From Marsupella aquatica (taxonomy: Eukaryota > Plantae > Marchantiophyta): a stretch of 64,000 nucleotides of DNA. Both the position numbers and the translations under genes were made by a program. The DNA lies in contig OZ316899.1 of the NCBI GenBank assembly GCA_973895155.1, positions 7,195,241-7,259,240 on the forward strand, in the 5' to 3' direction. The notes beneath the pieces were generated by a model. The model saw only the letters and a program-made list of their open reading frames with translations. It searched no databases and had not been told where the DNA came from. Below are positions 12,959 to 58,869 of this stretch, piece after piece (the first letter of the stretch is position 1; each line of letters starts with the position of its first letter).

Positions 12959-12978
12959 CGGGGCACTCCATCCGGATC

Positions 12979-13196: not shown

Positions 13197-13539
13197 AACA
13201 TTTGAGTTCCACAGAACAGAGCGGAACTCACAGAACAAAACTCAACAGATATCAATAGACAACCGCCAACCTCAATGAGCTGAGGCTCAAGTCTTAAGTA
13301 GCATCGGAAACCCAACCATCCAGCCTGAGCCAGCTGCCATCAGCGAGGCTCATCCAAACTCCAAGCCTGGTGACTCACCCAAACACCAAACCTGGTGACG
13401 GCGAGTCATCCAATCACCAAACCTCAATCCATCCAACCAAGCAGCCCCTCCGAGTCAGCATGCATGCAACCCAACCGGGAGGCCTCGCCCATCATTCCCT
13501 ATAAAAGCCATTCCTGAGCCAAAATCTTTTGGCACGACA
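13197..13539 (-). repeat. Partial 5' LTR of element X
   Basis: High similarity to 10558-10900; ends CACGACA. Confidence 0.85.
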
Positions 13540-13950: not shown

Positions 13951-14896
13951 AGGACGCTTCACAATTAAGCAGGGAGCTATGTGACGCCGCTGGTATGGTG
14001 GGTAATGAGTGATTTGGTCTAATGACGCTTAGCATGCATGTTAGGGGTATCTTAGGCCGTAAGTATTAGCATAACAACAGTATTTAGGTAGCCATTATGA
14101 GTAGGAAATCATTAGTCAATAAGGGGCGTTTGTGTTTGGGCTGGCGGCGGGTCGCCATTCGCACGCCCGAGTTGCGAGCGTGTAATGGGCCCTCACCTTT
14201 CCCCCTCAGGTCCGTATAACAAACTTCGGGAGGCGGCCACTGACACGAATTGACCCGGACCGGCAGAGTGGCCGGTACATTGCAAGCGTGAAAGGCTCGG
14301 CCTATAAGCAACAAGGAGGCGTCGGGCGATTGATGAGCTCTTTGGGTATAAAAAGGGGGCCAATCCTTTGCAGTGCACCAGTTCTTTAGTCCACGTGCCA
14401 ACTTTGACCCTAGTTCTCTCGCTTATCCTTAGTCGCCTTCTATCTCCTCTGAATGTCACACACAATCCTTTCCAGTTCAGCCATATGATTTTGGACGCAG
14501 TTCCTGTCTATCGGAGGGCACTTGGCCAACTCATTGAAACACGCCAACCCGCGCCAATACAAAATTGAACGCAAATACAAGAGAGCCATCCGCCTAGCAG
14601 GCCGCCACCACTATCTCCTTAACTTTGATTACCCGTCCCAGAGTGAGCTTTACCAACCCAAAGAGATATCAGGGTACTTCTTCAACGGAGGTAAATATAT
14701 CGGCTTCTGGGAGACACTGTTTTGGCTTTTGGACGAGGTCTTCAATATCCCAGGCACGATCAACTTACAGCGGCACCACTTTGACCACATCCCCGCTCGG
14801 GTCCGGGACATCATCAACAGCGAGTCCAGCACTACCCAGTCTACAAGGGTGTCTACACGTGCTTCAGAAAACCTCTACCGGCACCTGCAGAATTTC

Positions 14897-17800
14897 ATGG
14901 CAACCGTACCATCGACCACCGGTGTCGGTGTCCTGAGGATAAGCAAAGAGGTGGGAAAAGAGGCTCAAGGGACACGCAGGGTGTATGGCTGCTTGAGATA
15001 GGAAATGGTTGCAAACAAGATAAAGTAGACCCTAAGCACTTCCTTTCATCCACATCATCACAAGCAAGCAAGCATGCATGCTTTCGAAACTCAAGCCATT
15101 TACATACTCATATCCAATCACAATCAAAATAACTAGTTCAAGCTTCCCAATGTAATCCTCACAAGTCTAAGGCCAACATTCAATTGGTCACCATTCCTTT
15201 TCCAACACTTGATTGCACACAATCCCTTGCAACCTTCTAAGGTACACAAGTTCAAGTGTACATTCAATGTGGTCAAGTTAAGGGTCACTCTTGGTTGTGG
15301 CTAAGACAAGTGGGACATCCAAAGGTATGCAAGGCATCTCTATGCACCATTCAAACATCCAACTTTTGAAACATGGGAAACTACTTTCGAAAAGTGACCT
15401 AGGGTTGGTCAACAAACTCCTTAACAAACATGGAATTGACCTTAGTCCCTTCCTCTAGTAGAACCACCAAGTATAATCCACAAACAACCCAATCCATCAA
15501 TCGAAAATGCCTTCACTCTTTACTCTTGCAACTTCCCTCATGCATAATAACTACTTTCGAAAGTACCTTCATTCAATCCATCTACTTTCAAAAACACCTT
15601 CAAGCTCACAACAACATTCAAAAATGGCATGAAGACATTCATTCTAACCATTCCATCACTCATAGCCAAAGCAAGGCATCAACACACATCTCAAAAACGA
15701 GGATACCTCTCCTCTAAATGCATAGCAAGAAGGCACATGTAGCATCATGGCCTCCAAGTAAAAACATGGGTCACAAGCAAGACCCTCCTAGCAAAAATGA
15801 ATCATCACCAAGTCTAATCATCAACCAAGCATTCAAAATCCCTCCATAGCCTATCCAAGCTTCAAAACCCTAGTCTCCTTCTCTCATACTTCCTTCTATC
15901 AACCAAATCTACTTTCAAAGCTTCAAGTCAAGGAGTTTACAAGAGAGTAGTCCTTCTTAGTGAGCCATCTCTAATGCAAGACTCCCAAGCTTCAACAAGA
16001 TTAGGTCTCATCTCCTCTAAGCTTTCAAAAATCTCCTACAAGTCCATTCTCCTCAAAAACTTGAAGCAACAAACCTACATTCGAGTATGCCTTCTTGTGG
16101 GCAATCTCTCATGAAATCTCCTTATACTTCCTACTCACATCCTACCTCCTTCCTAAGGCTTCGAGTCAGCCTCTCCTACATTCGAAACCTCTCTCCAAAT
16201 CCCTAGAAAAACCATCACAAAACTCAATCTCTTCACATTCAAAGCTTCTACTCCATCTATCTCTTCGCAAAATTGCCTCTACATCTCCTACCCTCAAAAT
16301 CCTAAGGCCATGGCCAAGGAGGAGGGCTCCCCCTTCACTCATGCCTCATGCTCGAGCTCCCCTCAAGAGGTTCGCTCCTACAACTAAAAATGGGACTTAA
16401 CACTCCAAAACGGCAAAACGGCAGCACTTTAGCAGCATCTAACCTCCGAACCCTTGGCCACTCGAACTTCCTCCTTTAGTATCCACGTGGGAAGGCCCAG
16501 GGCATCCACAAGCTCCTCCACTTATGGTTTTAATCCTCGTTGAATCACAGCCCTTGATCTCACACCAATTAGATCAAACGGCCAAAAATGAGCCAAAAAA
16601 CCCCTCCTTAGTAACTTGCAAACCAAAAGAGCTTTGACCTTTTTGAAAAATCCACGACCTCCACCAAGCCCTAACTCACATCTCCACCTTCAATCCAAAC
16701 CATCCATTAACCAAAACCAGGATCCACCGTTGAAGTAGATACATTGAATCTGGTCCATTTAACACAAAAATCTGAATCTGGTCCAAATCTCACAAAACTG
16801 ATGCACTTGGTCCAAACCCTCTTACATGCCTTGAACCTGGTCACCTCCTCCATGTATTCAATGAACCTGGTCACCATGTTGCCAAAACCTAAATACCTTG
16901 CTTGTCGAGCAAGCAACCTCCATTCCGCCGATCCGCCAAATGATAACTTAATCACTGGTCACAAATGAAAAACATACCCCTCAATAGTAACAAGGGTGGA
17001 TAGGCTCGACCTCATCCCTACCTTGACCCTCATAACTCTACTTCCTCCTTCACCTTGGTCAAGTTAGCTCAAGTCAAGTCAACTTGCCCAAGTTAGAAGC
17101 AAAATTGGTTTCAACTTCCTTCACAAAACATGAGGATTCCTCCTTTAGGATGGAAACCTCATGACATCGGCCCAGCCGTACCCGTGCCCGCACCAGCACC
17201 AGCTCAGGCTCAGCTTCAGCCTCAGCCTCAACCTAGCCAATCCCCACCGCCGGTCGCCCCGCCAGTACAAGTATGCTCCGTCATCAACGCTGTGGACCTC
17301 AGCGATGATGACAAGGCTACCCCACCATTGCTTAGGCGTCCTAGAGGAGCGAGCACTTAGGGAGCCGGCACTACATCGCCCCCTCCCCAGGCCTAGACCC
17401 AAGTAACAGCTCCAGCAGACAACACGGTGGTCGTAGCCACCCCGGCCCCAATACTAATGGCGGTGGCACTACCTATACCCGATCGAGAGGATGGGGAGGT
17501 GTCACCCTCCCTGAGCCAGTCTCCGGGAAAGAAGAGGAAGGAACCCGCAGCTGTATACGGGTTACCCATGGCCACGATAGCCGCGGCCAAGGTGACAATG
17601 CACCGCATGGGGGAGAACATGCATAAGAACATCCTCCACCCCAAACATGCGGTGTACTTGAAAACTCAGGGGTTCGAGCACCTCGCCTCTCTCCCCTGGA
17701 ACACCTGCAGGTACTACGGGGAGGACATGACAGAATTCGTCAAGAATTATGACGATGTCCGTCAGCATACTCGGCTGCGGGGGAGGAATATGTCCCTCAC

Positions 17801-19325
17801 AGAGGAGCAGCTCAGGATGATCTTTGGGCTACTCGAGGGAGATCACCGAGTCAAATCATGGGCTCCCGGGGGCAAAGTAGCCAAGTACCAATCCTTGAGT
17901 TTTCCCTCTGAGGGGTCAGTGGACAACGGGTTCGTGATAAGGACCTGCCTCATCCCCAAGATAGCCGAGCGGCTGGAGTTCCAGAGGTACGCCCTCCACG
18001 TGATGGAACCCCGGGGCGAGATCTCCGCTGCCCAGGTTATCCAAGTCAAGAACTATCGACCTAGGAAGTGGGCGTCGTACTTTGCTAAGAAGTTCCATGA
18101 AGAGATGGAGCAGCGAAGGAAGGCGCTATACATTGGCGGGAAGTCGTATTTTGCAAGCCACATCAAGATCATCCTTGAGTGGTACGCCCGGTTTGATTGA
18201 TGAACCCTTCCCCGGGTCAACGTAACTAAGTTGGTCCCAGCTAGGTGGGTCTTCCCGGCTTTGGAGAGATGGCCTCAACCCGAGGCCCGAAGTCCAGCGG
18301 CCACGCAGGCCTCACCCACCCCACCTCTACAAGTAGCTGTAGTCGTGGCCAAAGAGGTACTGAACAAGGCAGTGATTGCAACATTAGATGCGATCAACCA
18401 GGCCAGGCCAAGTACCGAAGTCGGGACGGTGGAGGCCTTACCCAAGCCCGAGGGGCCAGAAGACCCACCGGTGGCTACTTCGGAGGACAGGATGATGATG
18501 GAGGAGGATACTCCAGCCCCTTCCAACACTACATCCCTAGGGCTGGATGTCACTACCCAGGCCCCCGCGCGAGTTGACATCTGCCCGTGCCCAAATCCGG
18601 ACAGGCACAACCTGGACCACCCGGAACTCTTCATACCGGGTACATTTCTGAACGGGATTTTGGGAGATTTCTCTCAACAGATTGCCCCAGATACCGGGGA
18701 GTTCATGGCCCGGAATGTAGCCTACTTCTTCAATCAGGAGTTGGTTACCGTTGTAAAGGCAGGTTGGGCCCAGTGGGAGGCCCTTCAGAGGATAGAGCGG
18801 TACCGGGATGAGTCCGTGTACCTAAAGGACAAAGTTGCAGCTCAAGAGGCTGAGCTTCTGCAACTACGACCCAAGGTTGCAGCCGCCGATGAGTTGTTAG
18901 CAAATGCGCACGCCCTTATCGCCCTAGCCGAACAGGCCAAAGCTGGGAAGGAGGTCAAGATTGCACGGCTCCGGACCCAGATTGACAGTTTGAAGAATCA
19001 AACTGTAATCTGGCAGAAAGACCTGGAGGAGGCCAAAGAGCGGGCCCAGCATGACACTGCAGAGATAGCCGCCCTACAGGCCAAAGTAGCATGGCTTCAA
19101 ACCAAAGCCGAGAAGCAAAACCAGATGGTGGGCAAGCTGACAAGCAACGCCTAGAAGCTGGAAGAGGCATGCCAAGAGGCAGCGGAGGAGACGGACGCGG
19201 CAAAGCAAGAGAATGAATCTCTGTTGGACCAAGTCTAGCTCCTCAAGATGGACAACAACAGACTCCGTAGGCAGCAGGATGGCCGCTCCCACTCGGACGG
19301 CTCTGGCAAGCGCACCAGGCATTAA
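14897..19325 (+). pseudogene. LTR-encoded accessory protein of G1 (Pro-rich N-terminus, Transposase_32/Athila-ORF-like core, coiled coil), ~730 aa ancestral
   Basis: MATVPSTTGVG joins GPAVPVPAP once 14929-17170 is removed. ORF pieces at 17130, 17427 and 18231 share one frame, broken only by TAG/TGA stops; ends TAA 19323-19325. May start further upstream (open from 14522). Confidence 0.75.
14929..17166. mobile_element. Solo LTR (2.2 kb, non-coding)
   Basis: Termini TGTCCTGAGG / CCTCATGACA (10-bp IR, 1 mismatch); 4-bp TSD TCGG; interrupts the G1 LTR ORF. Confidence 0.9.
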
Positions 19326-20206
19326 CGGAGGGTTAGGCTTAGAATAGAACTAGGAGTAGCTAAAACAGGTTGTTAGGACAAGTGCCGGCCAAAAGATAGC
19401 GGTGTTGACACATTAGCCAGCCTGTGTAGAATAGGTTAGACTAATAGGACAAGCCGTAACTAGCTTAGCGAGGATATAAGTTAGCGTAGATTCGGGCACG
19501 AGGCCAGGCTGGTCCTCAGCCCTTAGTATTTAGCAGCCCCTTGGTAGAGGCAAGGGGGGGATTTTAGACTTAGAAGTTGGCCATTTGCGGTACGCATGGG
19601 GAGTCCCAAACTTGGTGAAGTACCGGAGTGCCAAGGGGAGGGTATACGACTAAGCTTGTTGGGCGAGTGCGGAGCCGGGCTCTGTTGTAGTGTATACTCC
19701 TTGGCCTTGGGCCCGTGCGTTCACGAGGTGTCGGGTCAACCAATCGTAAGTGTATGATCATAAATGAATGAAATCTTTTCTCCTCAATTCCTTTGTGTAA
19801 ATTGAGATTTATGTTTATGTGTAAATGCATGTATGAGTCTCGTGTGCAAGTATCAATGTCGGGCCGAACACGTTATGCCAAGCATGCACGGGGTGCAAGT
19901 TACGGATACGGGGTTGCAAGCCAGGGTTGAGCACTTGTACTAATAGGATCCGGATCAAAGGTGGTAACACGAAGGCTTAGAAGTCCGTAAGCCAGGGTCG
20001 ACCCCGTGTTGACTAAGGTACGTTCCGGCGGCGGAACACAAACTATACCTAGGAGGTGTCTGTACATAACAGTAAGCGCACTTAGCGCTAGTTTACGTGA
20101 GTTAGGAGCATTCCGTGCGTCCCTCCCTGCCCGAACCCTCATATTTACAAAGGATGTGCCTGTCTAAGCCAAAGTCCGGGTTAAGGCCTAGGCTGACGAC
20201 GTGACA

Positions 20207-23200
20207 TTTGGGATTTGAGAAATTCGAGCCCACTAATCGGTTCCTGAGAATGGCGGACCAAACTTGGGTTGCTCCAGTTGGAATTTTACAAAATGTGGAT
20301 ACAATAATTGGAGGAATTACATTTCCTTTGGTGTATGTAATTATTCGACCCTCTTCTCCTTCCAATTTTCCAATCCTGTTAGGGCGGCCTTGGCTGTATG
20401 GTGTCGGGGTGAAAGTTAATTGGACTATGAAGGAATTGACTTTCGGTACTCTCCGAGTGATAGTAAGCTGGGACGTAGATCCTCACCAAAGTGAGACAGA
20501 GATGGACGAAGGCTATACTTCCAATTCCACGGTCACATCGATAGACTCTGATTCAGTCAGAAACAAGACCAAGCGACAAAAAGAAGATGACGTGAGATTC
20601 CTCGACATTTTTGAATTTGATGCTCCAGAAATTCCGGAAATAACCGCTGTAATTGCAAATCTGGAAATATCAGCAAATCCGGATCAGGCACACTTCAGCC
20701 GAAAAGTTCTGGTTTTATACTCTAATCCGGAAAGGACTCTAAAGCCGGTTTACAACCTGCATGACGCCAGGACCCTTCCTACCTAAGTACTGAAGGGATA
20801 GTACTGGAGTCAAATCTAGGATCTTGGATGGGGAGGGCGTCGTAATTGACCAAGAAGGTGTCAGCGCCGAGTTCTTACCAGAAGAAGCAAAAGGATTGAC
20901 CATTGAACCTATGGGTTTTACTGAAGGGATAGTAGACCCACGAGCTTGTCAAAAGGTGGAGATTGAACCTGGAATTTTTTTGAATATTAGCAATCATATT
21001 CAGGGTGACCTGCAAACTAAGTATGTGGAATTGTTGAAGCAATATAGGGATGTCTTTGCCTGGAGCCATACTGATATCAAAGGCATACCCCCTTATCTGG
21101 GACAACTTCGGATAGACTTGGTTGAAGGAGCAGTTCCAATTAGGCAAAGGCAATATCACCTAAATCCAAAATACTCCATAATGGTGCAGGATGAGATTGA
21201 TAAGCTAACTCAAGTCGGATTCATTTTTCCAGTCCTAAGCAGTGAGTGGGTTTCTCCCATAGTTATTGTGCCTAAGAAACCAGGTCCGGATGGAAAAGTT
21301 AAAATCCGGGTTTGTCAAGATTTTTGGAAGTTGAATGCAGCCACCAGGAAGGACCATTACCCCTTACCTTTCATTGACATCATTCTAGATACGGTTGCAG
21401 GACATGATCTTTTCAGTTTCCTTGATGGTTACTCTAGATACAACCAAATTTCAGTCAGGGAGGACCGCGACAAGACCACGTTCACCACGGACTGGGGCAC
21501 ATATGCTTTTTCGGTAATGCCATTTGGACTCTGCAATGCCCCAGGAACTTTTCAGAGGACCGTGATGATTATTTTTCAAGAATACCTTCATCAATTTTTA
21601 GAAATTTTTATTGATGATTTCTGTGTTTTCAGTACGGAAGAAGAGCATCTGGAGAAGCTGAGATTAACTTTCCAGATGCCGAGAAGCTCGCCTTTGCTTA
21701 CATCCAGAAAAATGTTTCATGGGGATGCAAAAAGGAGTGTTGTTGGGACATGTGATCTCTCAAAAAGGGATCAAAGTGGATGCTGAAAAAGTGAAGATTA
21801 TTCAAAATCTTCAACCCCCTGCTAATTTAAGGGAGTTGAGAGCATTTTTAGGTCATGTGGGATACTACCAAAGATTTATTCGTAAATATGCTGAGATTGC
21901 GATGCCCTTGACCCAGTTATTGAAGAAGGATGTTGAATATACCAGGACGGAAGCTCGGCAAATAGCTTTCCAAAATCTGAAAGATAAGTTGGTGTCTGCC
22001 CCTGTGCTGATACCACCTGATTGGGATAAACCTTTCCATGTGTACATTGACGCTTCAGCATTTTGTGTTGGAGCAATCCTTAGTCAGAAGGATGAAGCTG
22101 GTAAGGACCATCCTATCTTCTATGCTAGTAGACAAATGAACCCTACTGAGAAGAACTATACTGTCACGGAAAGGGAAGCATTGGCTGTGGTGTTTGCGTG
22201 TAAGAAGTTCAGACATTACTTGTTGGGCTATCCTACGGTATTTCACACTGATCATTCTTCGCTGAAATATTTAGTCAATCAAACTGATCTTTCCGGAAGA
22301 ATTGCTAGATGGGTTCTTTTACTACAAGAATTTGACTTTACTGTGGAAGTTCGACCCGGAAAACATCATGAGAATGCTGATTTCCTCTCGAGATTAGACG
22401 GTGAGGCGAACGAATCTCCATTGAATGATCAATTTCCGGATGAAGACATTTTCTGTGTCCATGAGGAGGATTCCTGGTATGCAGATATCATCAAACTTCT
22501 GACTTTGGGTGTTTTACCAAAGAATCTGAACAAGGAGCAACAAGCAGTCTTCATCCATAAGGTTGGACCTTATACCTTACGAGAAGGTGTGTTGTACAAG
22601 CAGACTCTAGACCAAGAGTTAAAGCGATGTCTTGAGAAGAAGGAGACCAAGACTGTAATTCAGGCCATGCATACAGAAGAGGTCGGTGGACATTATGTGT
22701 TAATGAACACTGTGAAGAAAATCTGGAATGCTGGATATTGGTGGCCGACCATGTATAAGGATACTCAGTCCTACATCCAAGCTTGTGATCCATGTCAGAG
22801 AATGGGTAAACCTACTTCCACTTCTCATTGGCCTTTAACTCCTATCATGCCTTTAGCACCTTTTGAGAAGTGGGGCATAGATTTTGTGGGTCCCATTCAA
22901 CCTCCCTCGGCCAGAACCAGAAATTGATACATTATTCTTGCCACAGATTATGCAACAAAGTGGGTAGAAGCTCGAGCAACCAGGAAAAATGATGCTCAGA
23001 CAGCAACTAAATTCATTTTTGAAAGTATCTTGGTCAGATTTGGTTGCCCTTTAGAGTTGGTGAGAGATAGAGGTCTTCATTTTCTCAACAGTACTATCCA
23101 AAGTCTCACAGATACATATATGATCCGCCATAGAAAAACCACCCCTTACAATCCTAAAGCTAATGGACTCACTGAAAAAGCTAACGGGTTGATGGAACGC

Positions 23201-23731
23201 ATATTACTAAAGACAGTGGCTGGAAACAAGTCAGATTGGGATGTAAAATTACATTCCGCCTTATGGGCATATCGAACAGCTAAGAAAATTACAACTAAGC
23301 AAACTCCTTTTTACTTGGTTTATGGACTCCATAGTATAGTTCTAGTGGAATTTGAGGTGCCCACTTACCGGATTTCTGATACCACCCGGTTGGATGAGGA
23401 GTCAAGTCAGACTATCAGGTTACAGAATTTGGAGAAGTTAGAAGAAGATCGCCATTATGCTTTGATTGAGACCGAGAAACAACAATTGGGACGTGCAGGG
23501 CGGTATGATTCTAAGCTTAAAGAAGTGAAGATTGTACCAGGTGATTTGGTTCTGCTTTTTGATAATCGTTACATGTTGTTTCCGGGGAAGCTTCATACCA
23601 AATGGCTTGGACCTTACAAGGTAAGAGAGATATTTGCTAATGGTTCTTTACAATTGGAGGATTTACAAGGCAAAGTTTTATTAACTCGAGTTAATGGATC
23701 TCGCGTTAAGAAATATCACTCCACCTCTTGA
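20207..23731 (+). pseudogene. Gypsy G2 pol (protease C-terminal part, RT, RNase H, integrase)
   Basis: PILLGRPWL, SEWVSPIVIVPKK, FIDDF, YIDAS, WGIDFVGP, WLGPYKV; a few frameshifts and stops; paralogous to G1 pol. Confidence 0.92.
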
Positions 23732-24290
23732 CGGTTTGCGAGGGCGCTGCACCGGTTGGGGAGGGAGTTATGTGATACCATGGTTATGATTAAAGAAATG
23801 AAAAAGTGCAAAAATTTTAAAAATTTCAACTTTTAGTGGTTAACGGAGTATAATTTGACCAGAGAGGACCATAAAAAAAATTTGCAGTATGAAATCCAGA
23901 AATATCCGGATAGCACCCTTTTTCAGAACTCTTAAGTAACGGCACCGTCGAGCCATGAGAGAAGGCGTGGGAGAATGAATATTAAAACCATAAGTCTGAT
24001 GTCCGACCGGAGACCGGAAGTTGGCAACCGAGTTCTTAAGACCACGCCAGACCGAGCATTCCTCACACCACCAAACTGCTGCGGAAATTTTTTGCGAGGA
24101 ATCACAGGAGAGATTAGAGCCGGACGAGGCTACCATTTTGAGGCATTAATTGAAAGGAAGTTGGTTATGGGGGAAGTGGGTGGTCGTTTGATTGAGAGGG
24201 GAAGTTCGCTACTTGATTGAGATTTCCGGATTTGATAATTCCGGATTTTGAAGGGATTTTAATTTGGATTCTTTCCCTCCATCTCCTCAT

Positions 24291-25936
24291 CATGGTGAAG
24301 AGAAAGGACCCGGATTTTTCCCCAGACAAATCCGGAATCCGGACGCTACCGAAGCGGACGACCAAGGAGCGGACAGTCATTGTGAATGAAAAGCCACTAC
24401 GACCGGAGATTCCCATGGATTTGGCATGGAAGGACCACTTACAAAAGAACCTTGAGAAAATGGGTTGTGCAAAGTTGATGGAGTTGCCATGGGGATACCA
24501 GAGTGCAGTATTTGTGAAGGGGAATCGCACGACCCTTGCTTTGGAATTTCCGGATTCGATTAGAGCCAAACCGGAAAAGTGGACCGCGACAGTTATCTCG
24601 TCGCTTTTGGATGTGCCTTTGAAGGGAGAAGGCTTCCTGACCTCTAAGAATGACTTTGTGGATAACTATTTTGATGGAGAAGTCAATCCGAAAGATGGCT
24701 GGAAGGTGTCCTAGTTTGTAATGAGGAGTTTTTTGACGTTCTGTCCTTTTTGCTCCCACTTCTTTCCCGTGCCAAGCCTCAACAAGTTACAATCCGGATT
24801 GGGAATACGATTGCTGCTTCTTACATAGGAGAGAAGAAGATTTCTTGGGCCAAATTTTTGGAGGAAGTTATAGCCAACCAGGTCCGGAATCTTCATTTGA
24901 AAACCCCCACATCCCTTTTCTTGTTATCTAGCCAATCTTTACGCAATGGACCAAATTCTTACAGATGAAGAAGCGGAGGAGTATGAGAATCAAGCCATGT
25001 TGGCTCAACTCGGAGATCCGGATCGACAGCCATCTAAGGGGACTGAATCAGAAGAAGAACCGGTTGTGGAAGTGCGACCTCCTAGGATGCAGAAGAGATT
25101 AGTACAGAGTCCGGAACCGGATCCTATTGAAGATCCGGAACCTGTCCGGAGACCGGAAAGTAGAGGAAGTCTTTTGAGTGTGACCCCCAATTCGAAGTGG
25201 ACGGCATCAGCAAAGTTGGAGAGTGCGACCGGAAAGATGAAGCAACTTGAGGATCTGGTTGGGACGGTTGCTGAGATGCTCAACTGCAGTCCAGTTGTCA
25301 TCGTTTTGACTTTGGACATGGTGATTAAGAGTCAGGCTAAGAAGCGGATCTGGGACTTAGAGGATCAGGCCTTCAAGGACAGAGAGAAGATTGACTCTTT
25401 GGTGGACCAGTTGGATGTTGCACAGAAGAAGTTGGAGGAACACCTGAAGATCCGGAAATTACTGAATGCTGCAGTTACTAGTGTTCAGGAGGCTATTCAT
25501 GTACCAGCCCTAGGCTTGTTGGAAGCTAACCTGATTGATAAGTATTTAGCGACAGCCAACCCAGGCACCCTTGCCAAGGTTATTGAGTGCAATAACCGCT
25601 TTTCCAAGAAGATCACAGGAGCGTTTGATCAGATGGAGAAAGTGATTTCGGATGCGAAGTCCATGTTGACCCCTGCCAGAATCCGGAACTTCTTTGGTGC
25701 TGCAAGATGAAAATGAAGCAGGAGGCACCCCACCCGGATTTGAGAAGGTTGAGTTCCATTTTCCGTCAGTGTCACCTCCAACTATCAGTTCAGGACATTG
25801 TTCACATTTTGATTTGAAGGACTTGGAGGCTACTGCGAGTTTAGGGACACCTCCTTCTCTGAAACCTACTAGTCTAGTTGATACTACACTTGAGCCAGCT
25901 AGAGTAGAGCTAGGAGATGATAGCCCAGTAGCTTAG
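24291..25936 (+). pseudogene. LTR-encoded accessory protein of G2, ~550 aa, disrupted
   Basis: MVKRKD..KMGCAKLMELPWG..PKDGWKV..KPQQVTIRIGNT..ISWAKF, then coiled coil; split over four ORF-track pieces. Confidence 0.65.
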
Positions 25937-26646
25937 TAGTTTTTGGTTAGTTAGCATCCAGATCTAGTTAGGATCAAAATCCGGATTTTTGTTGTAGACC
26001 CGGAAATCCATTTCCAGAAATTTGCCTTGGATTCATTTTCGGATTTTCCTTTGTTGCCACTCCCGGATTTTGATTGACAGTTACTTTTTCTCCCATGAAA
26101 ACCGGAAGTGACACTTTGTGACTTTTGGGATCCTTCCTTTGTGCATCTAAGGAGGAACACAGATCCATTTCCCTCAGTTCTTAGTTTTTGTTGGAAGCAT
26201 AGAAGCTCCTCCTTAGGTGCTCCTGTTGAGCCTTGACCTGTTGTGAGTAGAACTGCAGACTCCTTCTCCTGTTGAGAAGTTAATATTTAGAAAATTTGCC
26301 ATCATACTTTGAAGTTGGATTTTGATTTGAATTACTCATATGGATTCTAGGTAGCATTGAACTCCTGCTGTTTCAGTAGTCGAAATGGAATGTTTCCTTT
26401 TCATGAGTAATTATCTAAATTTGATTGAGAAGTTATCAATTCGACAATCTAGAAATTCTTATGTGTGAGAAGATACCAATTCAAGCATTCTAGTACCGTC
26501 ACCACTTGTTGACCAGAAAGAATTCTTGTTTTAATAACTAGATCTCCATGTAAATTTCTAGTTGATGTTTGATGTTTATTCTAATTTGACCATGTTATGA
26601 GCTTTGTTGCATTCTGAATCTTAAAAATCCAGGATCCTGTTGATTC

Positions 26647-29600
26647 TGTTGTGTGACAATGGAGAGACTTGCAACTCGCTATTGTGTTCCATTATGGGTG
26701 TGACTTATATAGTCACCATAGGGTTACATGTTGGGGTTGGTGTTAACCCATGTTACCCCTTCAGGATAGGGTTAGGGGTTAACCATGGTCTAGAGTAAAT
26801 GGTTACAACACTTCCCCTTGGAGAGTTTAGGGGTATAAAATCACCACACTACTAACCCTATGTTTATTTTTGGTGCTACCCCATTAAAACCTTCTGCTTT
26901 CTTCATAAGGAAAAAGGGTTCTAGCCACCATTAGTAGGATTTTCTTAAATTTGCACTAAGGTGAGTCTACCTTATAATTTGTCCAAATGTAAAGTTTAAT
27001 TTGGGTCCCCTATTACTAAAACTACTTCCCCTTAGTTTAAATGGGGTGTTTACGATAATAATTATTCTATCTTGTATTGGTATGAAAAATCGTATTCTGT
27101 CTATGTATACAGGAATGAAAGTTTTAGGTTGCATCGTCGTCGAGTCGGCTGTCGTCTGTCGGCTCGAGCTGCTCATTCAAACTGTGGAGTTTCTCTCGTT
27201 TGTGTGTCGACGGGCAGGCGCAATGTCGACAATCTTGTCATGCCGATCGCTGCTACGTGCTTTCGATGGAGGCTGGCGGGTAATGGCTTCGTGAATAGAT
27301 CAGCACAGTTCTCCTGGGAGCTCTTCCAGTGCACATTGATGTGCTGCCCTATCTGTTCATGGGTAAAGAAAAATTTTGGGTCGATATGCTTCGTGCGGTC
27401 TGTCTTCATATATCCTGCATTGATTTGGTCCACGCAAGCTTTGTTATCTTCATGGATAATCGTCGGTTTGGTGAGTAGTGGCTTACCAGTATTCTTGCGG
27501 ATGTGGTTTATGATGTTTCGAAGCCATAGCGCTTCTCTTGTTGCTTCGTAAAGAGCTATTACTTCTGAATGATTGGACGATGTGGTAGTCAAGGTTTGTT
27601 TTGTACTGCGCCATGATATTGCTGTGTTGCCTTGCAAGAAGACATAACCAGTCTGAGATTTCGAGTCATGCGGATCGGATAGATATCCAGCGTCCGCGTA
27701 TCCTTGCAGTTCATCCGGGTTATCATTGGCGAAATACAGGCCCATATCCATGGAGCCTTGAAGATAACGAAATAGTCGTTTGATGCCGTTCCAGTGGCGA
27801 ATAGTAGGTTGGGCGCTATGTCGTGCCAAGAGACTCACTGCAAATGAAATGTCGGGACGGGTGTTGTTCGCCAGATAGAGGAGAGCTCCGATTGCAGATA
27901 AATAAGGCTTGTCTGCATCAAGAAGTGGTTCATTTTCTTGTCTCCTTCTAAACATATCTTTAGTGGTGTCCAGGGATCGCATCTCCATGGGAGTCGAGAC
28001 TGAGTAAGCATTCTGCATGTTAAACTGTCGAAGAATTTTCTTTGTGTAAGTTGATTGACTAATAAACATACCTTGTGGCAGGTGGTCGAACTGTAGACCG
28101 AGGCAATACGTCGGTTCTCCCAGTTCTTTCATTTCGAAGATGCCCTTCATTGTATTAATAGTCTGCTTTAATAGCTTGGGGGTGCCGAACAGATTGACGT
28201 CATCAACATATAGTGCTAATATCACGAACTCAGGTGCTAGGTGTTTTATAAAAATGCAAGGGGCGAGGTCGTCATTTATAAAGCCAAGAGTCTGCATCTT
28301 AGTTTTGAATGTCTGATACCAGATGCGTCCGCTCTGTTTCAGTCCGTTTATTGATTTAAGGACTTGCACAGCAAATGCCTGCTGTCCAGTCCCATATTTA
28401 CCTGGGTACTGGAGTGGTTCTTTGAGTGTGTTGCCACTGCTCAACACTAGGCCTTTAATGTCATCATCAGGGACAATCTGTCGAAGTCCCGACTTCATGT
28501 CCTGACTTAGGGTATGTATATTCTTCCCCTGGATGTGCTCTACCACTCTTTCGAGCAATTCCTTTGGATCTTTCATATATATTTCGGAGTCTAAGACTCC
28601 ATATAGGTACGCAGTTACCACGTCCATGAGTATGTTTTTGAGTTTATGCTTTCTTGAAAAAGATATTAAGTACCTAAAGGTAGTTACATCCATAACTGGC
28701 GAATAGGTTAAATCGTAATCCCTTCCAGGGATTTGGGTGTAGCCTTTCGCTACAAGCCTTGCTCGATATCTTATGACATCTCCTTGGGCATTGCGTTTTC
28801 TAACGAATATAAAACGACTATCTGTATAGTCATTCTTTGGTTGTACAACCTTAACTGGGCCGAATACTTGTCTTTTGATTAATGCGTCCATTTCTGTATT
28901 GATAGCCTCTCTCCACTGTGGCCAATCGGGCCTTTTCTGTGCTTCTTTGATTGTATAGGGATCAGGTGTATCATTTGAGATGGATTGGGCTATATGATAA
29001 GCAAACTGCTCGTCTATTATTGTGTTTGATCGAGCATAAATGTGTCCTGTGTGTGTGTATTGAATAGACATTTCTTCATTATCTGGTGCCCTCTTTTTCT
29101 CTGGTTCGATACTGACCAGATTAAATGTGGTTTCAGTATTTACCGTTTGTGTACGTCTCTGGCGAGGGCGAGAATCAGTGGATCCTAGTGGGCGTCCTCT
29201 CTTCGCCTTAGGTAAGGTTTCCTTTGCTTGAGTTGGCAGCAGCTGAATCCGAGCTGGGGTATTGACTGCTTCAACATGTGATCTGGTCACATTTGCTGCG
29301 TCATTGAAAGCGTCAGGAATCTTTTCCAACATTTCGTGGAGATGTAATAAGCGCCTTACCTCCTCGTCTGCACTTTGAGTTCTTGGATCTTGATTGAGTA
29401 GATTTCTGCTATTCCAATTGAGCTGTACTGGTGTTATGTCGTGTGATGTAGTTGGCGCCTTAAGTAATGAGGGGAAAATTTCCTCATAGAAATGGCAGTC
29501 AGCGTGTCTTGCTTTAAATACATCAGCTGTGCTAGGTTCCAGATAGCGGATAAGAGACGAGGAGTCATGGCCAATATAAATACCTTCTCTCCTCTGTGGG

Positions 29601-32433
29601 CCAAGTTTGGATCGATGTGGCCCAAGGATGGGTACCATCACTTTACATCCGAATACTCTAATGTGTGAAAGGTCAGGGGGTAAACCGAATGCAAGGTGAT
29701 GAGGGGTTTTAGTATTAAATGCTGACGGCCGATACTTAAGCAAAGTTGTTGCATGGAGGACAGCGTGTCCCCATGCTGAAGGTGGTAGTTTAGAGTTCAA
29801 TAGAAGTGGCCTTGTTATCATTTGAATCCTTTTTATGACTGACTTTGCTATGCCGTTCTGGAAATGGACGTAAGGAACTGAGTATTCAATGTCGATCCCC
29901 GCTGTCATACAGAAGTCGTCAAATGCTCTGGAGGTAAATTCCCCTGCCCCGTCCACTCGCAATTTCTTAATTGGACAATCTGGGAATTGTACTCGAAGTT
30001 TTAATAAGTTGGCTAAGATTCTGGCAAAGACCAGGTTACGAGTAGAAATTAATGAAACGTGGAGCCATTTAGTTGAAGAGTCTACAATGGCTAAAAAATA
30101 TCTGAAAGGCCCACTTGGAGGGTGTATTGGCCCGCAGACATCAGCATTTAGACGTTCCAGGAATTTAGGGATAGTATAGATGGTCTTTTGTGTAGCTGGG
30201 CGTGTACTCAGCTTCCCCTGAGAACATGCAAGACATTGCTTATGATTTATAGATGGACGCACTCCTTTAGGGATTCCTCGTGAGTCCTTGATGATGCGAC
30301 GGTACATATTTATTCCCGGGTGCCCCAGTCGACAGTGCCAGAGGTATGTAAGATTATTTGATTCTGCTGTGGCATAGTTCGCTGTTATTGGGGCTGCATA
30401 TAAACCCGGGGGTATTAGAGGTAGTATCTCTTTGATTTGAATTCCATCTGTGGTCATGGCTACTATTTGCAAAGTAGGTTTCTGCTGGATCATTGCTGTG
30501 CGGAGTTGATAATTATTAGCAACAACGTCTTTGAAGCTAATCAAATTTCGAGTAGCTTTTGGTGCAAAGATAGCTGCTTCGATGTTAATGACTGTTCCTT
30601 GGGGAAATTTGACAGTAGCCTTTCCTGTTCCTTCCTCAATCTTATTCGTACCTGATATGGTTGTCATTATCCTGGCAGATGGAGTGATATCTTGGAAATA
30701 ACTCCTATCTTTTAGGATAGTGTGGGATGTCCCACTATCAATGATACCTAAATTGGGATCGTTGGAGGAGGGATATGGTGGCTCTTCTGTCACCAGATGA
30801 GCTTCAGCGTTGGATTGGTCTATCGTATCATTTTCTTCTCGATAAGATGGTAGCTCCTCTTCCAATTCCATATAGTTGCCATCTGGATTTTGCTTTAACT
30901 TAGCTCTTGCTTCTGAGTGCCTCTTAGCCGCTTGGTCAGAAGCCCAGCAGTCTTTCTTTAGGTGGCCAATTTTTCCACATCTATAACACATTCGGTCTTC
31001 TCGTGTGTTGTCAGATGATTGGGCGTGACCTCTGCCGCGTCCTCTTCCTCTACCCCGGCCACGGCTTCTGCTGCCTTGACCTCTGGTATTTTCATACTGA
31101 TTTCCCCTTCCACTATAATTTGAGTTGCGACCTCGTCCTCTATATCCACCTCTTTGTGTACCCCGGCCTCTTATATTTCGTTGTTGGTCTTCTGGGGCAT
31201 TGTAATTAATTTCTGGTTTCTGTGGTATAGGTGCAGTGCCTGGTGGTCGTTTCCTTGCATTCTGTATAGAGACAATTTGTTGTTTCTCCTCTACTAGGAG
31301 ATGTGCAATTAAGTTAGAATAAGTTGTGAATTGCATATTCCTGTATTGAGTTCCCAAGGCGATGTTGGCCTCTGGGAAAGTACTCAACGTTTTATCGATT
31401 TTGTCTAAGTCTGCAACTGGGTGGCCACACATCTCCAATTGAGATGTAATACGAAATAGAGAACTATTATAATTTGCTATAGAAGTATGATCCATGACAC
31501 GTAGATTAAACCAATCCCTGCGGGCTTCTGGGAGCCAGACCTCTCGCATATGGTCAAATCGAGCTTTTAATTTGTCCCATAATAGACGGGGATTAAGATC
31601 ACTCATATATTGTGTCTTCAGTGATGGTGTCAAATGCTGTCTAAGTAGAAATACAACTTTGGCCTTCTGTTGCAATGTTAAATTGTCATCAGTAATTAAT
31701 GTATCCTCTAGTTGTATTGATGCGAAGTAGGTCTCTACATCTATTGACCAGGTTAAGTAATTATTGCCATCTGCCAATAGGGCTGGAAAGTGTAATTTCT
31801 CCAGGGTGGCCATAGTATCTCAAATCTGTAACAAATCACTGTCCGCGTTCTGATTAATATCAAATCTATGTCGTTCTCAATTACTTCAATCACTCGTGCC
31901 TTTTTATCCACGGGATTTTCCTTGGCGATAAAAGAAACTCAGGATTTCCGTGGCGGAACAATAAGATATAAAAAAAATTGAGTCGAATTTGAACGGGAAA
32001 ACACTATTTCAAAGTGATTCATGCCTCTCCGATAGTGTCACTAATCAATTATATACGGATTGTGTGTTTTCCGTAAGGATTCGTGGACTATTCAGAGGAT
32101 CCGAAGTTTAAATTATGGTGTGATTTGAATCGGTGGCAGTTACTGATGTGGGGTGGGGCTAAAAACGCAACATTGGAAGTCAATTTCTTTGTCTGAAAGC
32201 CGTACTCCAATTATCCTACCTTAACTCCAAACTGTAAAAAAAAATTTAGATGCTATCGCGCTGATAACGTGTTGTGTGACAATGGAGAGACTTGCAACTC
32301 GCTATTGTGTTCCATTATGGGTGTGACTTATATAGTCACCATAGGGTTACATGTTGGGGTTGGTGTTAACCCATGTTACCCCTTCAGGATAGGGTTAGGG
32401 GTTAACCATGGTCTAGAGTAAATGGTTACAACA
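26647..32433 (-). mobile_element. Ty1/Copia LTR retrotransposon, Bianca-like, full length
   Basis: Apparently identical 164-bp LTRs at 26647-26810 and 32270-32433 (TG..CA); 5-bp TSD GATTC; PPT CAAGGGGAAG; PBS CGTTATCAGCGCG. Confidence 0.97.
27173..31813 (-). CDS. Copia gag-pol polyprotein, 1546 aa, uninterrupted
   Basis: CYRCGKIGHLKKDC knuckle, DSGTSH protease, WHCRLGHP, integrase, YVDD RT, GYADAG RNase H. The N-terminus and FLERLNADVCGPIHPPSGPFRYF are Bianca-like. Confidence 0.97.
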   Translation of the reverse strand: MATLEKLHFPALLADGNNYLTWSIDVETYFASIQLEDTLITDDNLTLQQKAKVVFLLRQHLTPSLKTQYMSDLNPRLLWDKLKARFDHMREVWLPEARRDWFNLRVMDHTSIANYNSSLFRITSQLEMCGHPVADLDKIDKTLSTFPEANIALGTQYRNMQFTTYSNLIAHLLVEEKQQIVSIQNARKRPPGTAPIPQKPEINYNAPEDQQRNIRGRGTQRGGYRGRGRNSNYSGRGNQYENTRGQGSRSRGRGRGRGRGRGHAQSSDNTREDRMCYRCGKIGHLKKDCWASDQAAKRHSEARAKLKQNPDGNYMELEEELPSYREENDTIDQSNAEAHLVTEEPPYPSSNDPNLGIIDSGTSHTILKDRSYFQDITPSARIMTTISGTNKIEEGTGKATVKFPQGTVINIEAAIFAPKATRNLISFKDVVANNYQLRTAMIQQKPTLQIVAMTTDGIQIKEILPLIPPGLYAAPITANYATAESNNLTYLWHCRLGHPGINMYRRIIKDSRGIPKGVRPSINHKQCLACSQGKLSTRPATQKTIYTIPKFLERLNADVCGPIHPPSGPFRYFLAIVDSSTKWLHVSLISTRNLVFARILANLLKLRVQFPDCPIKKLRVDGAGEFTSRAFDDFCMTAGIDIEYSVPYVHFQNGIAKSVIKRIQMITRPLLLNSKLPPSAWGHAVLHATTLLKYRPSAFNTKTPHHLAFGLPPDLSHIRVFGCKVMVPILGPHRSKLGPQRREGIYIGHDSSSLIRYLEPSTADVFKARHADCHFYEEIFPSLLKAPTTSHDITPVQLNWNSRNLLNQDPRTQSADEEVRRLLHLHEMLEKIPDAFNDAANVTRSHVEAVNTPARIQLLPTQAKETLPKAKRGRPLGSTDSRPRQRRTQTVNTETTFNLVSIEPEKKRAPDNEEMSIQYTHTGHIYARSNTIIDEQFAYHIAQSISNDTPDPYTIKEAQKRPDWPQWREAINTEMDALIKRQVFGPVKVVQPKNDYTDSRFIFVRKRNAQGDVIRYRARLVAKGYTQIPGRDYDLTYSPVMDVTTFRYLISFSRKHKLKNILMDVVTAYLYGVLDSEIYMKDPKELLERVVEHIQGKNIHTLSQDMKSGLRQIVPDDDIKGLVLSSGNTLKEPLQYPGKYGTGQQAFAVQVLKSINGLKQSGRIWYQTFKTKMQTLGFINDDLAPCIFIKHLAPEFVILALYVDDVNLFGTPKLLKQTINTMKGIFEMKELGEPTYCLGLQFDHLPQGMFISQSTYTKKILRQFNMQNAYSVSTPMEMRSLDTTKDMFRRRQENEPLLDADKPYLSAIGALLYLANNTRPDISFAVSLLARHSAQPTIRHWNGIKRLFRYLQGSMDMGLYFANDNPDELQGYADAGYLSDPHDSKSQTGYVFLQGNTAISWRSTKQTLTTTSSNHSEVIALYEATREALWLRNIINHIRKNTGKPLLTKPTIIHEDNKACVDQINAGYMKTDRTKHIDPKFFFTHEQIGQHINVHWKSSQENCADLFTKPLPASLHRKHVAAIGMTRLSTLRLPVDTQTRETPQFE

Positions 32434-33514
32434 GATTCTGCTGGGATTGTCATTTTCCATCATCTCTTCTCATGAGTCAATTGAAAAGACATTCTTACTA
32501 GTCCTTTTCCATGTCTTTCTTTAATTATTAGTTTTTGTGCATTGATTACTATCAATCCTCTAGAGAGAGAACTCCCTGGCGAGGTTATGCCGAATCAACA
32601 TCTTATTTGTTCTTTTCAGTACCAATTTGCTTTTCATTAACTCTTACAGGGAACGAATTCAGGTCTTTAGTTGTTAAACGGTTCTTTAACAATCTGACCA
32701 CTTTACCACAGCCGATTATGATTGTATTCGGTAGGAATTGAGAATTTGTTGAGTTTTTTTGTCGCTGGATATGAGTTATTCAAGACTCCATGATTTGAGA
32801 GAAGCCATTTAGCATCCCCTATAGATCTTGGTACCATCTGACATTGTGAGGGCTCGAAAGCCTCAAGTGACCGGGCCATCGCTGTATGCAGATTTTTGTT
32901 GTTGTATTCATGTACAATATTTTATTATTCTATCTAGGCTGTGCCAAGCCAACAAACTGTTGACAACCAACATGGAATAGCAACTATTGAGTGCAATGTC
33001 AGAGGACACTATCAAATACAGGAATGACATGATTCTGTTTTTAATTCCCTGCTTGGATGAGGCGTGGTGTTGCTTGTAATCATGTATTTCTTCACACTAG
33101 AAAAGTAGTCTGTCAGATGAGGTTGTCGGGATTGTCTGTGGGTCATTCATCTTACGGACACCTAGCAATGTCAAATGAAGGGCTCAAATGAGCCATGTTG
33201 TCATTTTGAAATTTGTCTTTCCTTTTGCCATGCTACCCAATTGTCAAACACTTGTCAAGGAGCTTAAGCGGCTTTTCTCCCCAAAAGACTACCTAATACC
33301 TGCTCCATATCATACCAGGGTCACAAAGGATTGACAAAACTTCTGAAATGTGCCTACAATGTCTAATCACTCCATACATAAGTAGTTTCAACTCTCCACT
33401 TCTAGATAGGTAGTCTCTTGACTACTTTTGTACTCACACCCTTCCCCTCTCCTCTACTCCAAGGATCAGCAAGGGGGATCTCCGCTCCAAGCTGTCACCT
33501 TAGAGTAGATTCTC

Positions 33515-51800: not shown

Positions 51801-53582
51801 CAAGGGATTATTGCGCTGCAGCAGGAGCTTGCATCCCTGACGGCCAGCTTCAAAGCCGACCTGCGTGAGAAGGACAATATGCTCGATCAGACTTACGCCA
51901 AGATGAACCAGATGGAGTCTGTCATCATTGCAGAGCTCGACAAGGAGTTAAGAGCGACCCAGTAGGAGAGAGCTGCGTTTAAAAAGGAATTGGAGGAAGC
52001 CCAGAAGGAGCTGGAGGAGGCGCGCAAGGACCTGGACGAAGTGCAGGAGGAGTTGGAGGAAAGCACGCGGAAGCTAGAGAACTTACAACGACGAGCTGAC
52101 AACCAAACGGAGTGGCTGAAGAAACAAGCCGCAATATTTAAGTGCTTGGCTTCATCAGGGCCAACTCAAATTGAGGCCACTAAGTTACCAGGAGTGGTAC
52201 TGGCCAAAGGACAAACCGCACCATTTGCACCAGTGCCGGAAGTAAGTGAGAAGGGGAAGGGGCCAGCTGCCGAACCAGAAAAGAAGAAGAAACGGAAACC
52301 TTCAGGGTCAAGGAGTAATACGGCTCCACAGGCCGTGGTGACCATGGAGGTAAACCCAACACCGACCTCAGGCAGGATTACGGCAGAGGATCCAACTACC
52401 CTAGAAGGGGATGACAAAGCCAAGGCCAGGATACTCGGTAAAGCCGAGGTACCCAATCTGCCACTTAAGTGTGCAGGGGAGGCCGTAGCCGAGGCTGAGG
52501 CCGTAGCCAAGGCTGATGTTGAAGCCGATGCCGTAGCCGATGCCGGCGGTGGACCCAGTCAGGCCGATGGAGAGTTGACTCAGTCAAGGATAGGTAATCT
52601 GTCAGAGAACGAACCTACGGCAGTGGCTGAGGAGGAAGCATTGGGGGCGTCCACTGAGGGACAGACACCGCTGCCATGACGGTGGTGGAGGGCCGCTCCT
52701 TTCAAGGAGGGCGGACGTGGAGGGAGGAGGCGTGAGTGGGCAGGGCGGGCTCAGATCTCTAAGTTTAGGATTAGGATCAGGACCAGGAGGCGGCCCTGAC
52801 ACTTAGCTTAGTGGGATTGCGGTTCCACTGGTAAGAGCAACACTTGTACTCCTGCCTCGTTGTACATAGGTAGATTCAGTTAGGTAGATTAGGCTTACGC
52901 TGCAAAGAATTAGGCGGATCCACTACCAGGATAAGTACCTGGGCAGCGGGGAGCTCAGGGCCTCTTCTTTAGCAAGTTTTTAGTTGCACTAGCCGGGCTG
53001 GGATCAAGTAGTAAGAGAAGCTCTCGGTTAGTCATACAATGACCCTTGTGTATATTCATGTTTCCTCATGCCTAAGAGCTTAATAGAGTTGGCCTCACGG
53101 CTTAGTTCGCAGAGCTTGTGTATGAGATGTACTGTTTGTATGGCAAGTGCCTGGTATGACTCAGTCAGAAGGAGTCATTTTGCTATTTGTGTGTCGCATT
53201 AACTTGTGTGAAGAGTGCCCACATCAACTAATAGATGAAGGAAAGTAAGCAAGGGAGTGAGAGTTGGATGTGTTGAGCTGAGAGAGGTCTTAGCGGCTTA
53301 ACCAAGCCTATTGGGGATCATTCCGGCGGCGGAATCCAAATATACCTAACAAGAAGGAGGGAAAGACAAACGAAGGCCTAGATTAGGTCGGCTACGTATC
53401 TCATGACCCGATGAAGGATCTGTCCAGTATATGTGTGTAAAATGTTAATAGTAGTAGTAGAGGGAGGTTAGCAGCGTCCCATGCCACTAAGCCGCAAAAA
53501 CGGCCTCGCCAAGCGCGAAACCTACGGGAATCGGCTTGTGAAGGGGGTTTCTGGGGTTTAGGGAGCCATGGGACGCACCACA
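48869..53582 (+). mobile_element. 4.7-kb solo LTR of the G1/G2-like family, containing a long ORF
   Basis: Termini TGTGATGC..GCACCACA; perfect 5-bp TSD GTATT (48864-48868 and 53583-53587); no gag/pol; no terminal direct repeats. Confidence 0.9.
49245..52679 (+). pseudogene. LTR-encoded protein (~1140 aa ancestral): Transposase_32/Athila-ORF-like core, Pro/Glu linker, long coiled coil, basic NLS-like KKKKRK
   Basis: GLEAFVRLPW..EFVGSW..TRVYGKDFYLT..VFGLP parallels GFEHLASLPW..EFVKNY..TRLRG..LT..IFGL of G1; two stops and two frameshifts. Confidence 0.8.
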
Positions 53583-58866: not shown

Positions 58867-58869
58867 TAT

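Follow-up and report, generated by a model that had tools for sequence, protein, structure and literature searches.

G2, a decayed Ty3/gypsy retrotransposon of the liverwort Marsupella aquatica, carries downstream of pol an accessory open reading frame (ORF) whose conserved core, judging from structural models, probably forms a DNA-binding domain of the VANC/Transposase_32/ATHILA type, followed by a coiled-coil oligomerisation region. The element lies in a 64,000-nt stretch of contig OZ316899.1 (GCA_973895155.1; positions 7,195,241 to 7,259,240, forward strand; “the window”), in which plant transposons are nested. G2 is recognised as a non-chromoviral Ty3/gypsy element by the order reverse transcriptase (RT), RNase H (RH), integrase (INT), followed by a polypurine tract (PPT) and then by an apparent long terminal repeat (LTR) that starts with TG. 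Two further elements of the window, G1 and G3, have ORFs that are homologous to that of G2 at the profile level. In G3, the ORF is located inside the LTR; the same position is strongly supported for G1 and for a relative found in metagenomes, L005, and is very probable for G2, where it is read from the class of the junction between PPT and LTR. By prediction, the encoded protein works like VANC, while being neither a VANC protein nor a formal member of Athila.

Predicted fold and relatives of the accessory ORF

The G2 ORF begins at an ATG at 24292. Breaks at ~24712, 24915 and 25700 divide it into four frame pieces, a to d (Table 1), with 472 codons to a stop at 25710, or 548 to 25936, close to the ~550 aa given by an earlier sequence-only reading of this DNA. 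The present copy would not yield a full protein. The same reading had described a G..L..LPW core and a coiled coil. The core motif is present with a spacing one residue wider (G-x3-L-x2-LPW, here GCAKLMELPW), and the coiled coil corresponds to a heptad-like stretch at ~25327–25452 in piece c, identified by heptad score; the family profile also retrieves coiled-coil rows. Piece d has no homologue among the searched loci and may therefore not belong to the ORF. None of the four pieces has a match in Pfam, and there were no matches in word-index searches with pieces a and b, in viral contigs searched with piece c and with the G2 integrase, or in metagenomes searched with piece a.

Relatives were collected by a metagenome scan with the G2 integrase alone, which gave 80 loci. 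Seven of the eight loci closest in INT (L001–L008) carry an ORF that matches piece a and/or piece b (E 2e-13 to 8e-5), and tblastn with piece b finds matches in six loci (E 1e-11 to 8e-5). The exception, L003, stops 284 nt past its PPT, too early for the presence of an ORF to be judged. A profile of five relatives’ ORFs, built without rows from the window, matches piece a at E 4e-22 and piece b at 4e-16. Long open ORFs, of 606–774 aa, are found in L001, L006 and L007, and database relatives comprise 28 G2-family and 56 G1/G3-family proteins; of ten clusters looked up, four have an organism name, in each case that of a liverwort (Calypogeia fissa and Riccia sorocarpa). BLASTP aligns the G1 and G3 ORFs (E 2e-18) and finds nothing between G2 piece a and either of them (E 0.77 and 2.4), much as expected from the sequence-only reading, which had called the three proteins barely alignable and had proposed comparing their profiles. 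That comparison does reveal similarity: HHalign aligns the ORF families with a probability of 97.5 (E 8.3e-12, 167 columns; an earlier run gave 84.7), and the hidden Markov model (HMM) of the G1/G3 family matches the L001 ORF at E 2e-9. In two predicted proteins, P0071 (Riccia sorocarpa) and P0078, a G1/G3-type domain follows a weak match to DDE_Tnp_4 (Harbinger-like); DNA transposons may thus be further carriers of the domain, unless the two are fused gene models.

Because the G2 core is broken, L006 was folded in its place. The L006 core model (7-row alignment) has a predicted local distance difference test (pLDDT) score of 92.5 and a predicted template modelling (pTM) score of 0.89; the G1 core model, from a separate 37-row alignment, has values of 92.4 and 0.89. 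Compared by VIA with 48,161 solved chains, the L006 model has a single match at Z>=2, VANC21 bound to its target DNA (9lnk_A; Z 7.2, root-mean-square deviation (rmsd) 4.0, 195/207 residues). The G1 model again matches 9lnk_A (Z 7.8, rmsd 4.0, 187 residues aligned), with the runner-up at Z 2.3. Thus, the VANC21 matches stand alone, span the whole domain and recur in two separately aligned families. In Foldseek, VANC21 is at rank 1 for the G1 model (E 0.16, probability 0.85, TM 0.48) and at rank 20 for L006 (E 2.5, TM 0.42); no match at E<=0.001 was found in the Foldseek PDB and viral libraries. When a G2-family protein was compared with the Atlas, model against model, TM was 0.74 for a Transposase_32 cluster (216 residues) and 0.67 for an ATHILA cluster (190), both values being below the Atlas bar for naming a family.

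Several observations count against this assignment. According to the tool’s own note, Z values of 7–8 are common as top scores for unrelated models; here they come with an rmsd of 4.0 and an identity of 10–13%. The Foldseek E-values to VANC21 (2.5 and 0.16) are not significant, and the model that stands for G2 was built on its homologue L006. There is no sequence match to VANC21, with PDB sequence searches returning essentially coiled-coil or weak rows. The Pfam families DUF1985, PMD, ATHILA and Transposase_32 are matched by none of 26 G2-family members, and Transposase_32 is touched by only two of 39 G1/G3-family proteins, at E 0.006 and 17 bits versus a cut-off of 45.

VANC21 is encoded by VANDAL21, a Mutator-like element (PDB 9LNJ/9LNK; Hosaka 2017, PMC5735166). 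The likeness of the G2-type protein to VANC21 consists of a predicted fold over the whole core (187–195 residues), a globular domain combined with a coiled-coil region (for VANC, PMC13547354, which reports predicted coiled-coil oligomers for VANC and the Athila domain), fast divergence between families, and a distinct short word enriched in each family. By contrast with VANC, found in eudicot VANDAL Mutator-like elements, the ORF described here is encoded downstream of a Ty3/gypsy pol and has its named relatives in liverworts; moreover, the identity is 10–13%, DUF1985 is not matched, and the words bear CpG, are dispersed and lie largely within the ORF. The 3′ sense “env-like” ORF of Athila (PF03078 ATHILA, PF20167 Transposase_32) is similar in its sense orientation downstream of pol and in predicted structure (TM 0.67/0.74). 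Features that Athila has in common with relatives of G2 are a tRNA-Asp-type primer-binding site (PBS), in L001, L005 and L009, and the internal placement of the ORF, in L001. Differences from Athila are that the ORF follows an LTR-start junction in G1, G3, L004–L008 and, very probably, G2, that Pfam families are not matched at cut-off, and that hydropathy reveals no clear transmembrane segment. A sunflower Athila 3′ ORF has been described with Transposase_32 and a nuclear signal (PMC11728184). Lastly, the plant mobile domain (PMD; PF10536), known from Gypsy PMD-A and from host MAIN/MAIL1, is a retrotransposon accessory domain with a reportedly VANC-like structure (PMC13547354; 10.1101/2024.09.27.615353); unlike it, the G2 pieces, L001, L005 and both protein families lack a PF10536 match. 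Gypsy-encoded PMD-A is known from angiosperms (PMC5418596), PMD is described as angiosperm-only (PMC8616336), and VANC is reportedly MAIN/PMD-like and dicot-specific (PMC13547354; 10.1101/2024.04.02.587720; 10.1101/2024.09.27.615353). In the literature covered (main texts, including few subscription papers), we found no description of a VANC fold for Athila/Transposase_32-type ORFs, and none of a whole ORF inside a plant LTR.

CpG words and the proposed function

VANC proteins reportedly recognise short motifs, which vary from one transposon family to another, and their targets are tandem arrays in noncoding DNA (PMC5735166). We compared the top 6-mer of each of 23 regions (11 ORF-bearing regions, nine controls, L014, L009 and G2 pol) with 60 Markov simulations. 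The top word exceeded all 60 simulations in 9/11 ORF-bearing regions versus 2/9 controls, which is a correlation only. CpG is part of all nine enriched words, which vary by family: CCGG words in G2 (TCCGGA) and L004–L007, AGCGCT in L001, AAACCG in L002, AAGCCG in G3 and GTCGAC in L010 (50 occurrences versus 17 expected). The two enriched controls are a CACTA end region and 58700–64000; L014, with undefined ORF status, is also enriched, and L009 and G2 pol are not. In the part of G2 that follows the PPT, AATCCGGA occurs 10 times versus 0.9 expected and TCCGGA 15 times versus 4.8 expected, with the word present in all three codon phases of the ORF; G2 pol has no excess of CCGG-type words. The ratio of observed to expected CpG is 0.87–1.06 in L004–L008 and L010. 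In L001, the ratio is 0.07 in pol (817–3714) and 0.42–0.53 around the ORF and LTR (3770–7564), where AGCGCT clusters.

Leaning on the structural models, and with our confidence evenly divided, we propose that the G2-type ORF encodes a self-targeting, DNA-binding, anti-silencing accessory protein. The protein would oligomerise via its coiled coil and bind the CpG word of its own family via the VANC-type domain; bound to the word, it would shield copies of its family from silencing. Protein and word would then diverge together as an anti-silencing module, a step we regard as equally finely balanced, and their co-evolution could be why the ORF diverges faster than pol (see below). Transposon-encoded PMDs have been suggested to counter silencing (PMC8616336), and a 2026 paper leaves for investigation whether Athila-lineage proteins modulate the methylation of their own elements (PMC12844716). 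Since each family would combine the fold with a predicted word (TCCGGA/CCGGAA, AGCGCT, GTCGAC, AAGCCG), specificity could be cross-checked between families. The word data also include points that weigh against the proposal: G1 and L008 have no enriched word in the 60 simulations, the CpG ratio of G2 is just 0.61 after the PPT versus 0.52 in pol, and the 29 CCGG of G2 are dispersed (leader 6, ORF 19, tail 4), whereas VANC targets are noncoding tandem arrays.

The same fold and word binding could belong to a transcriptional or chromatin regulator, acting by PMD/MAIL1-like Polycomb protection, LTR trans-activation or integration tethering rather than by demethylation, an alternative that we rate as rather unlikely. 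MAIN/MAIL PMD-C proteins, which act against Polycomb at short motifs, reportedly have this fold as well (10.1101/2024.09.27.615353; PMC13547354), tethering would suit the in-frame fusion to integrase in L010, and the words are dispersed and not tandem. However, all nine enriched words hold CpG, a methylation substrate, and both the CpG ratios of L004–L008 and L010 and the contrast between pol and ORF/LTR in L001 fit local protection from methylation.

On a broader scale, and with somewhat more doubt than confidence, we suggest that the Ty3/gypsy elements of non-seed plants are engaged in an independent arms race of the VANC type. It would be fought with an Athila-type accessory gene, which even solo LTRs keep owing to its place in the LTR, and whose product would bind the CpG word of its family and block silencing. 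Athila “env-like”/Transposase_32 ORFs, PMD and VANC would in that case belong to a single superfamily of DNA-binding proteins, which would extend to retrotransposons beyond the flowering plants and from which the VANC of eudicots may have come. Such a history would challenge the origin of VANC-type domains from host MAIN within dicots (PMC13547354).

The LTR boundary, divergence and constraint

The position of the ORF is clearest in G3. G3 ends in TG...CA with an 8/10 inverted match, has a target-site duplication (TSD), GTATT, on both sides, has flanks collinear with the copia 3′ region and contains no internal direct repeat; it is therefore a solo LTR. CA|GTATT occurs only once within 48869–56000, and a candidate end at 53404 was dropped, as the TSD places the end at 53582. 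The sequence-only reading had placed all three ORFs inside LTRs, after one junction, AGGGAG(C/T)TA|TGTGA. This junction occurs at just two places in the window, in G1 (13971) and G2 (23762); G3 lacks a PPT, since its ORF is part of a solo LTR. L005 has 9/10 bases in inverted complementarity between the TG start that follows pol and the LTR end that precedes the PBS.

The pol stop of G2 is followed, 27 nt on, by the PPT and a TG at 23771, where TGTGATACC begins directly after the tract, as the sequence-only reading had it. The reference for interpreting this junction is L001, a circular 10.7-kb assembly and the closest INT relative (65%). Its order is pol, PPT-like tract, 740-aa ORF, second junction, 991-bp LTR, tRNA-Asp-type PBS and gag, i.e., its ORF is internal and lies between two PPT-like tracts. 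Athila, too, possibly has two PPTs. Each junction was scored against the LTR-abutting and the internal junction of L001, with 500 shuffles for each comparison. The G2 junction scores 50 against the LTR-abutting class (0/500 shuffles) and 21 against the internal class (113/500). Together with G1 and L004–L008, it matches the LTR-abutting junction (scores 29–60, 0/500 each; internal, 64–458/500), and a scan of the whole window against it gives its two highest scores at the G1 and G2 junctions. For L002, L003 and L013, the internal junction gives the higher scores (44–51 versus 28–30). No second junction was found downstream in G2, G1 or G3 (best scores 27, 20, 25 and 23, versus 50 for G2’s own).

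Some results speak against an LTR start at 23771. The 3′ end of the G2 LTR was not found in a view that ends at a CACTA-like element at 33095, 1.37 kb past the G2 ORF, and the 5′ LTR is outside the window. By eye, 32710 had been taken as an LTR end with a 6/10 inverted match; it was equalled or exceeded by chance in 405/1000 shuffles, ranks 32 of 4674 CA ends and was rejected. The G2 tail has no significant similarity to the L001 LTR (12/100). Trees were built from 18/80 and 11/80 loci (closest plus outgroups) with window and metagenome rows only. In one of the two, G2 joins L001–L003, whose ORF is outside the LTR, weakly (80/85); the other (18 loci) places G2 differently (84/84), and an approximately unbiased (AU) test gives p 0.14, with either direction of the LTR-boundary shift, and also a swap of the G1 ORF, compatible with these results. 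One may picture the G2 ORF as internal, as in Athila and L001. In that event, 23771 would mark a PPT copy within the element, and the genuine PPT would, along with the LTR, be lost or lie beyond the CACTA-like element. The order of parts in L001, the first of these trees and the missing LTR end all favour such an arrangement. Nonetheless, it is improbable, as the G2 junction belongs to the LTR-abutting and not to the internal class, and as no second junction occurs in the 1.37 kb past the G2 ORF, compared with ~125 nt past the ORF stop in L001.

The relatives exhibit three arrangements: ORF in the LTR, internal, or, in L010 (L010:1-4713), fused to INT. In this last case, a single 1570-aa frame joins the core domain to the C-terminus of integrase, and a 542-bp LTR lies downstream. 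The likeliest route of interconversion is a switch of the PPT junction that primes plus-strand synthesis, and the LTR boundary of the G2 lineage would have shifted by such a change of junction. An 18- to 19-nt motif just 5′ of the LTR-abutting PPT (13944 and 23734) is kept in eight elements, whether coding or noncoding, and is possibly a cis signal for plus-strand priming. If the G2 junction is an LTR start, the gene is present in each LTR of the family, solo copies included. With a whole gene in the LTR, solo LTRs could provide the factor in trans, and programs that search for LTR pairs would be misled, so that such elements would be mis-annotated. TATA-like words precede the ORF in G1 (14347) and G3 (48963) and are less clear in G2, making LTR-driven expression plausible.

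Accessory genes in LTRs are familiar from retroviruses, in the form of sag of mouse mammary tumour virus (MMTV) and nef overlapping U3. Those proteins and their hosts are unrelated to the ones described here, where a whole gene travels in 4.7-kb solo LTRs. The literature assigns the extra ORFs of plant LTR retrotransposons to the internal region, on either the 5′ or the 3′ side of the polyprotein (PMC6317226, PMC7264820), with roles that “remain unclear” (PMC7264820); Retrosat2 ORF0, for example, is upstream of gag-pol (PMC3485330). PBS and PPT features have been described for Athila (PMC1142308, PMC2844528). Phygy and Selgy (Neumann 2019, PMC6317226) resemble G2 in being non-chromoviral elements of non-seed plants with a pol that nearly reaches the PPT, but are described as rather short and are contrasted with eORF-bearing OTA elements. 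The same source gives NCGN as the preferred site of Phygy, which the G3 TSD (GTATT) does not fit; the G2 TSD is not in view.

As the sequence-only reading had stated, pol is well conserved between G1 and G2 (RT 58% over 179 aa, RH/INT 54% over 236 aa) and the ORF evolves faster. Across the same five pairs, INT is 56–65% identical and the ORF core 27–46%; between L005 and L006, the rate of nonsynonymous change (dN) is 0.56 for the ORF versus 0.13, with synonymous change (dS) saturated. dN/dS is 0.16–0.47 in the four ORF comparisons for which dS is finite (0.16–0.37 in the three that also have >80 codons), and dN is below dS wherever dS is measurable. The divergence above that of pol and these ratios together indicate an ORF that is fast-evolving yet constrained. 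The sequence-only reading had seen in the fast divergence a sign of conflict between host and transposon. The rates do not show such conflict; the idea finds better support in the fold, predicted to be VANC21-like, and in CpG words that are specific to each family. Were the ORF weakly constrained cargo under relaxed selection, with the CpG words a mutational or host-factor by-product, it would be natural that all three window copies are broken, that G1 and L008 are wordless and that 2/9 controls have a word; such a reading is quite improbable in view of the long open ORFs, the 28 and 56 database relatives, the dN/dS of 0.16–0.37 and a conserved fold that is modelled confidently. That the ORF encodes a membrane protein of the envelope type, a proposal made for the 3′ ORFs of Athila, is barely credible: a sense ORF 3′ of pol, relatives with a tRNA-Asp-type PBS (PMC2844528) and one 19-residue window of mean hydropathy 1.68 in piece c would suit it, but pieces a, b and d peak at 0.86, 1.31 and 0.31 (hydropathy only, with no transmembrane predictor), predicted viral structures gave 0 matches at E<=0.001, and the modelled core is soluble and globular and resembles a DNA-bound structure.

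Features of G2 and the surrounding elements

Coordinates are collected in Table 1. The 5′ part of G2 lies outside the window because G1 is inserted in the G2 protease region. No chromodomain family was found at E<=1 in G2 22928–23728 or in the pol of L001 and L005; all three are in this respect non-chromoviral, as is the Athila clade. For the RNase H of G2, L001 and L005, only RT_RNaseH families were matched, using general profiles and no dedicated profile for the archaeal-type RNase H, an addition that marks Tat and is absent from the Athila clade. Summed contig depth past the G2 junction is 1.35–3.0 times that over pol in 4/4 runs; this is not a copy number and was not used as support.

Table 1. 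Coordinates of G2, its accessory ORF and associated elements in the window
Feature	Position	Strand	Basis
G1 3′ LTR, TG...CA, terminal inverted match 8/10; homologous ORF with core in 17397–18200; insert 14925–17170	13980..20206	+	
G2 pol (protease tail, RT, RNase H, integrase; frameshift and stops)	20207..23731	+	Pfam RVT_1, RT_RNaseH, Integrase_H2C2, rve; ORF list
Conserved pre-PPT DNA motif	23734..23752	+	Common to G1 (13944), L004–L008 and the L001 LTR-abutting junction
G2 PPT	23758..23770	+	Sequence
Left part of the probable G2 3′ LTR: leader 23771–24291, ORF, tail; 29 CCGG, 15 TCCGGA	23771..26646	+	Junction class, word counts
ORF piece a: basic N-terminus (MVKRK...), first half of core	24292..24711	+	HMM without window rows, E 1.3e-22
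Conserved core, ~200 aa, over pieces a, b and start of c; predicted VANC21-like and Transposase_32/ATHILA-like fold	24382..24987	+	
ORF piece b (other frame): second half of core	24711..24917	+	Same type of HMM, E 5.3e-16
ORF piece c: core end, acidic/proline linker, heptad region	24913..25710	+	21% over 247 aa to L006
ORF piece d (perhaps not part of the ORF): tail of low complexity	25700..25936	+	Open frame
Ty1/copia in G2 tail, identical 164-bp LTRs, TSD GATTC; foreign to G2	26647..32433	-	Repeats, ORFs
G2 tail resumes; candidate LTR 3′ end 32710 (not significant)	32439..33094	+	Shuffles, inverted match
G3: 4714-bp solo LTR, TSD GTATT on both sides, in copia 3′ region; broken homologous ORF 49134–52679	48869..53582	+	

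The insert in the G1 LTR is 2.2 kb long, A/C-rich and skipped by contigs from four runs; an open frame at 14489–15001 may be the N-terminal part of the G1 ORF. The G1 and G3 LTRs share one 29-bp block near their 3′ ends, TTCCGGCGGCGGAA...TATACCTA (20023–20051 and 53321–53348; 90%), which is the only clear DNA similarity between them. The relic of a fourth, G3-like ORF is located at 54635–56190 on the minus strand (67% DNA identity and dN/dS 0.16–0.20 versus G3) and is interrupted by a LINE, a copy of which at 8907–10307 is 99.6% identical.

The copia element in the G2 tail has a single 1548-aa frame and identical LTRs, suggesting a recent insertion into G2. The CACTA-like element (33095–44900), whose 3′ end was not found, contains a BRCT-domain frame at 37316–37951 (Pfam E 6e-9) and, by eye, a cysteine-rich PHD-like stretch near 36020–36550. 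A further element at 10386–13540, within the G1 integrase, has 343-bp repeats (10558 and 13197; 95%), a 37-bp tandem repeat and the remnant of an integrase zinc finger. At 58700–64000, there are two long minus-strand frames (59560–60351 and 60352–61761), in a region enriched in the CpG words CGTGTA and CGCAAG.

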